From the NCBI RefSeq assembly GCF_055900595.2, contig NZ_CM148325.1: a stretch of DNA of 64,000 nt; one strand, written 5' to 3'. The notes under the pieces were generated by a model. The model was not told the origin of the DNA. It ran no database searches and worked only from the letters and a program-made list of their open reading frames with translations. The position numbers and the translations under genes were made by a program. Of this stretch, positions 39,070 through 46,795 are shown piece by piece; position 1 is the stretch's first letter; each line of letters starts with the position of its first letter.

Positions 39070-39336
39070 ATGGAATGGCTGGTCAAAAAATCGTGCTGCG
39101 ATAAACAAGATAACAGACATGTACTTATGCTCTGCGATGCTGGCGGCGCGATAAAAATGATCGCCGAAGTGAAGAGTGACTTCGCCGTGAAAGTGGGCGA
39201 TTTACTCTCCCCTTTGCAGAATGCGCTTTACTGTATTAATCGTGAAAAGCTGCACACGGTGAAGGTCCTCTCGGCAAGCAGTTACAGCCCCGATGAGTGG
39301 GAACGGCAGTGTAAAGCGGCAGGGAACACTCAGTAA
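39070..39336 (+). CDS. pmrD: signal-transduction connector protein PmrD
   Basis: 88 aa from ATG 39070 ([34 protein letters not shown]...). Confidence 0.85.
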
Positions 39337-39716
39337 CGTTGTTTTGTCGTGGGCAGGAAAATCAACATCAACCCGCTCATAATACAAGCAACTCCCAGTA
39401 GTGCCTTCAGCGAAAAAGTTCCTTCCCAGCCGGGAAGTATCATTGATGCAATCCATACCAGCACATAGCTCATACTGAGCAAGGCATAGGCTTTGCTTAA
39501 CGCAAGTTTATGTAGCGTTTTATACCAACAAAAAACGGAAAGCAGATAACCCAGCAGCCCGAGTAACAGTATCCGGGCATCCAGGCCAAAAGCTAACAGC
39601 GCCGCGATAAAATCCCATAAGTGCGTCATCGGCGGCAGATGACTCGCCGCATAACCCAGGCTTAATTGCGCAGCTGAGGCAATAATGACGCTGAATAATC
39701 CCCACATCAGGCCCAT
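39330..39716 (-). CDS. arnF: undecaprenyl-phosphate-L-Ara4N flippase subunit ArnF
   Basis: 128 aa from ATG 39716 ([29 protein letters not shown]...). The ORF-track 222-aa version is an upstream extension into arnE. Confidence 0.85.
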
Positions 39717-40051
39717 TACACCGTACTCCCGAGGATCACAATGCCGCCAATAATGAACGCCACCCCACACCAGTGACGCAGTGATACCGGCTCGTGCCAC
39801 AGTTTTACTGCAGCCAGCGTCACCCAGACAAAATTCAGACTTAACATCGGGTAGGCAATGCCTACCGGTACGTTCTGCAAGACCAGCAGCCAGAGCACCA
39901 TGGCAAGGCCAAGACAAGCCAGCGCCAGTCCCAGCCACAGCACGATATGTTTGCGCCGTTTGTTTATCGCCACAAAGCAGGTTGCTTGTTTCTGACACAA
40001 CTGCCCGGCAACGCTAAGCAAGCTGGCAAAGACTAATGTTAGCCAGATCAT
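39716..40051 (-). CDS. arnE: undecaprenyl-phosphate-L-Ara4N flippase subunit ArnE
   Basis: 111 aa [37 protein letters not shown]... Confidence 0.9.
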
Positions 40052-41700
40052 TTGGGCCGATACTGAATCAGCACCAGACGCTCCTGACGATCGATGGCAT
40101 CTGCGGGCGGAATGGCGAGACTGTTGATATCTTCATCGCGGTCAACCGAAAGCACGAGTGTAATAACCCCCTCCTGACGATGTTGATTAAGCCAGTTTGC
40201 GAACTCATCACCGCTGACAAATCTCCCTTTCGCATCCGGATAATTTAGGCCGTATTTCAATTCCCCTGTCTGGCGATACATGATGATGTCATCACGTCTC
40301 AGGCTCCATGCCAGACCAGCAGCAACGCCGACGCTATCGGTAAGAATATAGCGGCTTGGCTGCAGTGATTCTTGTGTCATCTCGACAAAAAATTGCGGAT
40401 GTTTTCCTTCCATGACTCTGTCAGGAATTGAAAATCCTACCAGCAACGCCAGCCCCAGCGGGCAAAGCGCGGCAAAAGACCAGGTCTTTTCGACGTTTGT
40501 TAAGGTGTACCAGCCGAAAAATGCCCATAGCGAAAAAATCGACCATGCACAGAAGACTTTATAGCTCTCGAAGGTTTGCCACACCGGCGTGCTCATAGGT
40601 CCCCAGGGGGAGACCACAAACGTAGCAATAATGCCAGTGACGCCAAAAGCGATGTTAATCCAGCCATTAATCCGCAACGCCAGAGGATTATTTTTTGCTG
40701 CCAGCAAAGCGTAATGCGCCATCAGCATTGCCAGAGGTGCAAAGCAGGAAAGAATATAGGTGGGCAATTTGCCTTTGGCGACGGAGAAAAACAGCAGCGG
40801 CATTACCGCCCAGCTCAATAAATAGACGGTTGCGGAATGCTTGCGGTTTTTCCAGCCTGTGTACAGTACTCCGGGGAGTAATCCCAGCCACGGCAGGCTA
40901 CCGGCAATGATGACCGGCAAGTAGTACCAGAACGGAGCTCTATGCTGAGCATCATCCATTGCAAAGCGTTGAATATGCTCAACCCAGAAAAAATAGTGCC
41001 AGAAGTCAGGCTCCCGCTGCGCTATCGCCAGTCCCCAGGGGAGAACCGTCAGTACGCAACTGATAACCGCCAGCCAGCCGTAAATAAAGAGATCTTTCCA
41101 GCGTTTTTGCGTTGCAACCCATGGCAGCACGCTTAATACCGGCACGGCAAGGGCGAGAAAACCTTTGGTCATCACCCCCATGCCGCAGGTGATTCCCAGC
41201 AGTAAAAATCCCGCGCTTTTGCCTTTCCACGTCTGTGCCTGCATTGCCAGCCAGAAGCTGCACATTCCCGCCAACAGCCAGAATGCAATAAACGGATCGA
41301 GCACGGCATAAGTGCCAATGGCATAGACAATAAACAGTGAGAGATAAATCACTGCGGCGAGTAGAGCCAGACGTTTATCGCGCCATAAGCGCAGAGTAAA
41401 CCAGGTCACCAGCGCGGCAGTTAACAGGGTCGCAAAGATAACGCCTGCCCGCACACCAAAGTTATTTGCGCCAAATAGCCATTGCCCAATACTGTTAATC
41501 CAGTATCCGGCAATGGGTTTTTCGAAATAACGTAGCCCTAACATATGGGGCACAATCCAGTCGCCGGATGCCAGCATTTCCCGACTGATTTCCGCATAAC
41601 GCGTTTCATCTGGTTGCCAGAGCAGACGCGTGCTGATCGGTAACAGGTAATAGCAGGCAATAAACGCGAAGAGGCCGATAAGGTAACGTACCGATTTCAT
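40048..41700 (-). CDS. arnT: undecaprenyl-phosphate-alpha-L-Ara4N:lipid A arabinosyltransferase
   Basis: 550 aa polytopic membrane protein [42 protein letters not shown]... Confidence 0.95.
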
Positions 41701-42590
41701 CAGCGACTACCCGCAATTTGTTGGCAACCCAGCCAGCCTTCACGTCCGGCAATATTTCCGCGAACAACTTGTCCGAGCGGCAACGTCCCTGATAACAGTT
41801 CGCTTAAAGGGCAAAATGTCACGCCTTCCTGGGTTGCGCGTTTCAGGAGATCCACAAAATTATGCTGATAAGCGCAGCCTTCAACTTCTGCATGAATGGT
41901 ATAAACCGGCGTGCCTTTATCTCGCAGGATGCGGTTGAGTAGCCAACCGTTAAAATCTTCTGCTTTCACATCCCGACCAATCACTTCATCCCAGGTGGGT
42001 AAGGTCACCGGAATTTGCGCAGTACCGGGTTTTCCTGATTCGAGCAATGGACGAAACGGCATCGCCCCACGACAATCGCTGTTGTAGCGCAAATGGAACG
42101 CTTCTTTTGCTTCGATCACCTGCTGGTCGGCACGCCAGCCAGCGGCTGCGGAGCAGGTTACCGGTTGGCCGATAATTTCTTCCAGGGTGCGAAGGCCGCG
42201 TGCAATATCGTCGGCCATCGTTTGCCGATCCCAGTTACCGCTATGGGCTTGCCAGGCGTGATGATCCCAGGCGTGTAGGCCGACTTCGTGGTGTTTAGCC
42301 GCTTCTCGAATGATATCGGCATTGGCATGACCAATCTCTTTTCCTGGCCATGCCGTACCCGCCAGCAAAATATCCCAGCCATAAAGCGATGCTGCGTTTG
42401 AGCGCAGCATCTTCCACAAAAACTGTGGCTTCACCAGTCGCCAGAGATGGCGGCCCATATTGTCCGGGCCGACGCTGAAAAAAATGCTGGCCTGAATATT
42501 ATGCTTACTCAAGATTTCCAGCAGACGCGGCACGCCTTCACGGGTGCCACGAAAGGTATCGACATCAATGCGTAAGCCTACTTTTGTCAT
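41700..42590 (-). CDS. arnD: 4-deoxy-4-formamido-L-arabinose-phosphoundecaprenol deformylase
   Basis: 296 aa [38 protein letters not shown]... Confidence 0.95.
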
Positions 42591-45537: not shown

Positions 45538-45540
45538 GGC

Positions 45541-46698
45541 TTATTGTCCTGCGAGTTGCTGAAGGGCTGTGATGACGCGGTCGGCATCGGCGGTGGTCAT
45601 ATCCGGGAACAGCGGCAACGAACAGATGCGTTCGCTATTCCATTCGGTATTCGGTAACGACAGCGTGGGAAAACGCTCGCGATAATATTTTTGCGTGTGA
45701 GCGGCGCGGAAATGTAACCCGGTACCAATGCCTCTTTCTTTTAACGCTTCCATCAACGCATCGCGACCGATACCACAACGTTGTTCATCGACACGAATAA
45801 TAAACAGATGCCAGGCGTGAACGTGCGGCCAGGCGGGAAGGCTTAATGGCTCAAAGGGGAGAGCTGCCAGAGCTTGCTGATATTGCAGAGCAATTTCGCG
45901 CCGACGGGTGTTGAGGTGCTCTAATTTGGCTAACTGGGTCAGGGCAATCGCGGCGTTAATATCGGTCAGATTATACTTATAGCCCGGCGTTAAGACTTCA
46001 GCTTGCGGTGCACGGCCCCAGGTTTGTCTGTCATATGCATCGACACCCAGACCGTGAAATTTCAGCATCCGTAGCTGGCAGGCGAGGTTTTCATCATCGG
46101 TAACAATCAACCCACCTTCCGCACAGGTAATATTTTTGATGGCGTGAAACGAAAAAATAGCGGTACCTTTTGCGCCAATATGTCGGCCTTTGTAATACGT
46201 ACCGACGGCATGGGCAGCATCTTCGATAACTGCGATGCCGTAACGTTCGCCAATGGCGCGAATGGCGTCAATATCTGCTGGCGCACCGGCATAATGCACC
46301 GGAATGATGGCTTTAGTGCGTGGCGTAATGACTGCTTCGATCGTTTCAGGCGTGACCATCAGCGTATCGCGGTCGACATCCACCATTACCGGCGTTGCAC
46401 CCAACAAGGAGATCATATTGAGGGTTGAAACCCAGGTCAGGGAAGGCGTAATCACTTCATCGCCCTTGCCAATTTCCAACGCCATTAGCGTGATATGCAT
46501 TCCGGCGGTGGCTGAACTGACCGCGATGGCATGCTGATTTCCCGTCAACTGGCAAAAGGCTTGTTCAATCGCCTGATTCTTCGGACCGGTTGTGATCCAA
46601 CCGGATTCGAGAACCTCTTTAACTGCTGCGAGTTCCTCCACGCCCATTGCTGGTCGCGAAAAAGGCAAAAATTCTGACATTGCTTTTCCTTCCGCCAT
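45541..46698 (-). CDS. arnB: UDP-4-amino-4-deoxy-L-arabinose--oxoglutarate aminotransferase
   Basis: 385 aa from ATG 46698 ([41 protein letters not shown]...); the ORF track extends 5 codons further to 46713. Confidence 0.9.
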
Positions 46699-46778
46699 TG
46701 AATACCTGTCCACTTATATTTGCTATAAAGAGTGTTGTGTATATTTTGCCATTTGGAGCGAAATTCTAAGGATAGAAT

Positions 46779-46795
46779 ATTAACTTAACCTTAAG
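46779..46795 (-). promoter_or_regulatory. candidate BasR/PmrA box upstream of arnB
   Basis: Minus strand reads CTTAAG-GTTAA-GTTAAT, a direct repeat with 5-nt spacer resembling the PmrA box (YTTAAK-N5-YTTAAK), about 80-95 nt upstream of the arnB start. Confidence 0.5.

Follow-up and report, generated by a model that had tools for sequence, protein, structure and literature searches.

The chromosomal pmrD-arnBCADTEF-ais module of an Escherichia coli strain and its predicted PmrA/BasR-dependent promoter

We examined the genes for the addition of 4-amino-4-deoxy-L-arabinose (Ara4N) to lipid A in a 64,000-nucleotide (nt) stretch of contig NZ_CM148325.1 (NCBI RefSeq assembly GCF_055900595.2). This whole stretch is called the window below, and all coordinates refer to it. 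Annotation transferred from strain N96, Escherichia coli K-12 MG1655 and E. coli E500002 gave the gene order menC-menE, pmrD (+ strand), arnF-E-T-D-A-C-B (− strand), ais (+ strand), nudI and yfaZ. Of 5426 complete E. coli genomes, 5422 align collinearly with the window between 38.5 and 48 kb at 95-99% identity, and the location was chromosomal every time. The seven genes arnB-C-A-D-T-E-F lie on one strand in the expected operon order, and all seven products are full-length members of their families.

The first gene of the operon, arnB (45541..46680, −), encodes a UDP-4-keto-L-arabinose (UDP-Ara4O) aminotransferase of 379 amino acids (NCBIfam NF008658 equivalog, 735.2 bits against a cut-off of 631, aligned over 1-378 of 379). 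It is followed on the same strand by arnC (44569..45537), which encodes the 322-residue undecaprenyl-phosphate 4-deoxy-4-formamido-L-arabinose (Ara4FN) transferase (NF007986 equivalog, 668.8 bits against 529), and by arnA (42587..44569), whose 660-residue product is the bifunctional formyltransferase and UDP-glucuronic acid (UDP-GlcA) oxidative decarboxylase (NF005998 equivalog, 1250 bits against 777). The deformylase gene arnD (41700..42590, −; 296 residues; NF011923 equivalog, 522.1 bits against 382) and the lipid A Ara4N transferase gene arnT (40048..41700, −; 550 residues; NF009784 equivalog, 811.7 bits against 567) come next. The last two genes encode flippase subunits: arnE (39716..40051, −; 111 residues; NF011625 equivalog, 210.9 bits against 92) and arnF, also intact (39330..39716, −; 128 residues; NF002816 equivalog, 138.8 bits against 99). 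Convergent with arnF is pmrD (39070..39336, +), encoding the 88-residue connector that protects phospho-PmrA/BasR (NF011994 equivalog, 173 bits against 96, aligned over 1-85 of 85); it is annotated as pmrD in N96, K-12 and E500002 and shows 0 nt differences from the N96 gene. Divergent from arnB is ais, the homologue of pmrG (46988..47590, +; GTG start), which is annotated as ais in these three strains and encodes the 200-residue lipopolysaccharide core heptose(II)-phosphate phosphatase (NF011945, 388.6 bits against 142).

Gene identity and intactness were established directly. Translation of each open reading frame (ORF) showed that internal stops are absent from all nine module genes and that their lengths equal those in K-12, and all nine products scored above the curated NCBIfam cut-offs with alignments that run nearly end to end. 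A first-pass annotation of this DNA had described a complete, known module with all seven arn genes intact, and the ORFs, the NCBIfam matches and the collinearity with K-12 b2252-b2259 agree on this point. The genes in its title, pmrD-arnBCADTEF-ais, are likewise all present, but the range given for them (39070-46795) ends at the regulatory box described below and leaves ais outside. The module is thus complete and apparently functional, and Ara4N addition to lipid A is its predicted activity. Gene order, orientations, lengths and junctions are those of K-12 MG1655, as are the overlap of pmrD with arnF, the length of the spacer between arnB and ais and the box within it; the two strains differ in sequence, with 95.5-98.2% nucleotide identity per gene. 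The locus is therefore the ais-arnBCADTEF-pmrD locus of K-12 set in another E. coli background; it is already known, and nothing that we tested departs from it. The homologous operon of Salmonella enterica, pbgPE or pmrHFIJKLM, is similarly flanked by divergent pmrG/ais and convergent pmrD.

Within the operon, neighbouring genes overlap by 1 nt (arnC/arnA, arnD/arnT and arnE/arnF) or 4 nt (arnA/arnD and arnT/arnE). An earlier statement that all arn junctions overlap in this way holds for five of the six; arnB and arnC are separated by a 3-nt gap (TAA-GCC-ATG), as they are in K-12. The arn genes are still tightly translationally coupled despite this gap.

At the other end of the operon, the coding sequences of pmrD and arnF overlap tail to tail by 7 nt at 39330..39336. 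The shared sequence on the + strand is TCAGTAA, in which TCA represents the arnF stop codon, TGA on the − strand, and TAA is the pmrD stop codon (+). These coordinates are exactly those of the first-pass annotation, and the 7-nt overlap is conserved in Escherichia (K-12, N96, E500002, E. whittamii and E. albertii). The terminator scan found no canonical intrinsic terminator after the stop codon of either gene, and with the two genes overlapping, each transcript must therefore run into the other gene. A hairpin at 39437..39422 was rejected as a terminator; it falls within the arnF gene and is no more than expected by chance. That read-through of this pair is antisense, as had been suggested for the window, is already published: arnF-pmrD is one of 165 convergent excludons detected by ExcludonFinder in MG1655, and its authors highlighted it as a functionally related pair (PMC12288877). 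Most convergent excludon pairs of MG1655 have an intergenic region (95 nt on average), whereas the pmrD and arnF coding sequences overlap. Since the DNA arrangement in the window is the same, we consider pmrD and arnF of this strain a convergent excludon arrangement whose transcripts are expected to overlap as the literature reports for MG1655.

The divergent spacer between arnB and ais (46681..46987, 307 nt) has a GC content of 32.9%, compared with 51.4% for the whole window. It contains the direct repeat CTTAAG-GTTAA-GTTAAT at 46779..46795 (−), which was recognized by its sequence, by a consensus scan and by its conservation as a PmrA/BasR box in place of the −35 element of the arnB promoter. 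The box fits exactly the definition drawn from verified Salmonella boxes, in which the half-sites CTTAAG and XTTAAT are separated by 5 bp (PMC3973317). A more general definition reads XTTAAY-N5-XTTAAY overlapping the −35 element (PMC10570014). The same 17-mer is present in an arn-promoter probe of enteropathogenic E. coli (EPEC) O125ac:H6, where it is labelled as the PmrA consensus (PMC10729948); a literature search with the Salmonella box 17-mer returned nothing relevant. The PmrA dependence of arnB transcription in E. coli is known from published work, in which a P_arnB-gfp reporter required pmrA, phoP and pmrD in vivo (bioRxiv 10.1101/2020.05.05.080051) and arnB and eptA were described as members of the PmrAB regulon (PMC10729948). 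In S. diarizonae a related box, CTTAAT-GTTAA-TTTAAT, occupies the homologous place, 98 nt before the ATG as in the window. The proposal of a PmrA-like box CTTAAG-N5-GTTAAT upstream of arnB is thus borne out by its alignment with the validated Salmonella definition, its identity in K-12 and the conserved geometry described next.

We compared the arn locus in one genome per species with ArnB, a set of 80 Enterobacterales loci. A box of the PmrA type was found at most 350 nt upstream of arnB in 74 of the 80 species, and in 73 of these 74 it is followed after exactly 10 nt by the hexamer TAnnnT; any other offset from 0 to 29 nt occurs in at most 11 of the 74. The box, its conservation and this spacing were read directly from the DNA. 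The Klebsiella pneumoniae pbgP promoter, whose box is known from crystal and cryo-electron microscopy complexes with PmrA, has the same layout of two hexamers 5 bp apart, 10 nt and TAnnnT, with the box replacing the −35 element, although its box (CTTAAT-ATTAT-CCTAAG) differs and lies about 154 nt from the ATG. It also has an extra, PhoP-dependent proximal promoter, whereas E. coli is reportedly without direct PhoP control (PMC2565834). By its layout, the conserved arrangement of box, 10 nt and TAnnnT is the activator geometry established for Klebsiella PmrA. In the window it places the predicted −10 hexamer of the arnB promoter, TAGAAT, at 46763..46768 (−). When this hexamer is set at −12..−7, the box spans −39..−23, in agreement with the downstream edge of the PmrA footprint on the PmrA-dependent Klebsiella pbgP promoter at −22 (PMC2565834) and with a cryo-electron microscopy scaffold of Klebsiella PmrA, from which we take the structural mode of the regulator and in which native sequence is retained down to −13, ahead of the −10 element (PMC10570014). 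From this conserved geometry the arnB transcription start is predicted at about 46754-46757, which would give a leader of about 75 nt. The comparison cleanly confirms how PmrA promoters are built and yields a precise prediction of the −10 element and start of E. coli arnB; it leaves existing knowledge unchanged.

Several points weigh against reading the repeat as a working BasR site. The first half-site matches the direct repeat (C/T)TTAA(G/T) with a 5-bp spacer exactly, but the second begins with G, which the XTTAAT and XTTAAY definitions permit and which the EPEC study describes as (C/T)TTAA(G/T) "with a slight modification" (PMC10729948). Neither a direct footprint of E. coli BasR nor a mapped arnB transcription start was found in the accessible literature, and BasR binding at a box of exactly this sequence is a prediction. 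The −10 hexamer differs by one base from the K-12 hexamer TAAAAT, and a simple sigma-70 scan called no convincing arnB promoter, a miss that is expected because the promoter is activator dependent and lacks a −35 element. The motif could also be a product of chance in a spacer that, at 33% GC, is rich in TTAA-like words. The pattern YTTAAK-N6-TTAAK occurs only once in the window, at the arnB box, against a chance expectation of 0.24 matches, and 21 of 100 shuffles contained at least one. When we simulated 307-nt spacers with the same first-order composition as the real one, however, only 0.5% had a perfect box on the arnB strand (P ~0.005). K-12 and N96 have the identical 17-mer although neighbouring spacer positions vary, and in an alignment of upstream regions from Escherichia, Citrobacter and Salmonella it is a conserved island in AT-rich, otherwise poorly alignable sequence. 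Together with the TAnnnT hexamer found at 10 nt in nearly all species, these observations make a chance origin of the motif, with no role in arnB control, highly improbable. Judged by its sequence and conservation, the arnB box is the already known PmrA/BasR site of the arn promoter and not just a candidate. A further question is whether this site serves one regulator or two. A second regulator, QseB, may act in the arnB-ais spacer: in EPEC, phospho-QseB shifted a 60-bp arn-promoter probe, and loss of both pmrA and qseC left arnB constitutively upregulated (PMC10729948). The probe corresponds to 46757-46816 of the window with 3 mismatches and holds the whole PmrA box, so that cross-recognition of the box is a possible cause of the shift; for the same reason the probe cannot tell a separate QseB site from such cross-recognition. 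The data come from one strain and one assay, and the proposed QseB motif is itself described as "slightly modified". That QseB, the paralogue of PmrA, likewise binds at or near the box and can drive arn, with integration of the two regulators there, is accordingly a tentative proposal with somewhat less than even chances.

The overlap of pmrD and arnF may be a matter of genome compaction, the transcripts overlapping with no regulatory effect on either gene. The overlap is not strictly conserved: it is 7 nt in Escherichia and 6 nt in S. diarizonae, and Citrobacter species have a gap of 0-2 nt. The conserved trait is therefore the lack of intergenic space and not the overlap itself. RNA folding of the regions downstream of the two stop codons is unremarkable (z = 0.71 and −1.90), and the listing of the pair as an excludon is based on coverage only. 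Against this stand a close tail-to-tail layout that has been maintained in three genera, the lack of a separating intrinsic terminator, and the functional link between two genes whose transcripts overlapped in at least 50% of the 58 RNA-seq samples analysed for MG1655 (PMC12288877). On balance we lean slightly toward compaction; any regulatory effect of the overlap would be our inference. Such an effect was considered in connection with the pmrD promoter. The alignment of pmrD upstream regions contains a PmrA-box-like repeat in Salmonella (S. diarizonae, ATTAAT-GTTAG-GTTAAT) and Citrobacter (ATTAAG-AAAAC-ATTAAT). The aligned site in the window, at about 38963-38979 and overlapping the menE stop codon, is a degenerate remnant (ATTAAC-CATCC-GTTGCA, 6 of 11 positions), and the repeat is equally degenerate in E. 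whittamii. A scan of the E. coli pmrD promoter for a PmrA box gave no site of at least 9/11, and E. coli thus appears to be without the Salmonella-type PmrA site on pmrD. Given this degenerate repeat and the retained overlap without a terminator, antisense read-through from arn could lower pmrD expression. It is nevertheless unlikely, in our estimate, that PmrA exerts negative feedback on pmrD in E. coli through the gene overlap rather than through the pmrD promoter; if it did, PmrA-activated arn read-through would lower pmrD by transcriptional interference or cleavage of double-stranded RNA and close the loop. The expression of pmrD in E. coli is PhoP dependent (PMC2565834), and a candidate PhoP-box-like direct repeat, AGTTTA-TCTGT-TAATCT, was recognized from its sequence upstream of pmrD at 39013..39029 (+). 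In an alignment of pmrD upstream regions from eight species its first half, (G/T)GTTTA, is conserved; the second half is poor.

Taken together, the region is very probably the chromosomal E. coli module for Ara4N modification of lipid A, with a PmrA-box-driven arnBCADTEF operon and a pmrD/arnF excludon. In the mechanism that we propose, phosphorylated BasR/PmrA would bind the direct repeat at 46795..46779 as a head-to-tail dimer and, from this −35 position 10 nt before TAGAAT, would recruit sigma-70 RNA polymerase. The arnBCADTEF genes would be transcribed as a single translationally coupled operon, and the Arn enzymes would make undecaprenyl-phosphate-Ara4N, which would be flipped over the inner membrane and transferred to lipid A, where it would cut the negative charge and hence the binding of polymyxin. 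PhoP-activated pmrD would supply the connector that protects phospho-PmrA, and ais, divergent from arnB, would provide the core heptose(II)-phosphate phosphatase as part of the same regulon. The pmrD and arnF transcripts would overlap as an excludon, with no intrinsic terminator between them. The locus belongs to the E. coli core and draws clinical interest because of colistin tolerance. The copy in the window is a normal and apparently functional one with a normal promoter, and the finding matters little beyond annotation.

Some further features of the arnB upstream region were noted. The start codon of arnB is ambiguous: genomes annotated with the Prokaryotic Genome Annotation Pipeline (PGAP) use the ATG at 46680 (379 residues), whereas the K-12 annotation uses the in-frame ATG at 46698 (385 residues). 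The sequence AAGGAA precedes the ATG at 46680 by 7 nt. The alternative ATG, 18 nt further 5′, is kept across genera in the alignment, yet it is ACG in strain N96. Upstream of the box by 2 nt there is an extra TTAA half-site, ATTAAT, at 46798..46803; it is conserved in several genera, with CTTAAT or CTTAAA at this place in Salmonella and Citrobacter, and Klebsiella and Raoultella have ATTAAT. With this half-site and the box spacer GTTAA included, there are four TTAA cores in 25 nt. A tiny ORF, MAKYTQHSL* (46723-46752, −, ATG at 46752), begins 2-5 nt from the predicted 5′ end of the arnB transcript. An ATG is found 11-13 nt past the −10 hexamer in 30 of the 74 species, and the ORFs span just 2-10 codons every time; examples of such mini-ORFs are MK* in Citrobacter, MVC* in Enterobacter and MR* in Salmonella, where the ATG is 9 nt past the hexamer. 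The mini-ORF could be near-leaderless, or only a conserved initial transcribed sequence.

The suggestion that the AT-rich arnB-ais spacer may hold further regulator sites fits its base composition, but a further canonical PmrA box was not found on either strand of the spacer. The ais strand has no site of at least 10/11 in the window, and the four comparators with an ais gene show no conserved site of this kind. Mirrored use of the arnB box for ais was rejected, as the ais strand shows no conserved TAnnnT 10 nt beyond it, and so was a 9/11 match at 46937-46953, which E. whittamii and E. albertii do not share. Within the half of the spacer nearer to ais, a block at about 46840-46885 with the sequence GCAAAATGCCT[C/T]AAA..TTTG.CAAA.GCAAAGC is conserved in Escherichia, Salmonella and Citrobacter sp. 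R56. This block may contain the ais promoter, with the candidate elements TTGAGG and TAGGAT separated by 16 nt on the ais strand.

The flanking genes were detected at fewer loci than the operon. In tblastn searches with the E. coli proteins (E ≤ 1e-3), Escherichia, Salmonella and most Citrobacter were the only ones with pmrD beside arnF, and Escherichia, Salmonella and one Citrobacter the only ones with ais beside arnB; neither was detected in the fetched flanks of the other loci, Klebsiella included. For pmrD, the non-detection outside these genera may reflect the sensitivity limit for a fast-evolving protein of 88 residues.

The sequence around the module is locally diverse. E. coli E500002 matches the window at 99.6-100% identity outside about 32000-50000, whereas within this interval (men genes, pmrD, arn, ais, nudI and yfaZ) the identity is only 94.6-99%. 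The interval is a mosaic in which the nearest reference changes between 500-nt bins. For the arn region the highest identity was 98.2%, and none of 5411 complete E. coli genomes exceeds 97.5% identity over arnA-arnD. The 98.2% figure raised the possibility that the DNA is from a species other than E. coli, a reading rejected on the near-complete identity of the flanks to E500002. The mosaic pattern suggests locally high diversity or recombination at the arn locus. An Rfam search of the whole 64 kb at gathering thresholds gave no match in the arn region; its sole match is the nuoG RNA (RF01748) at 16480-16522 (+), with 50.3 bits where the gathering score is 33.

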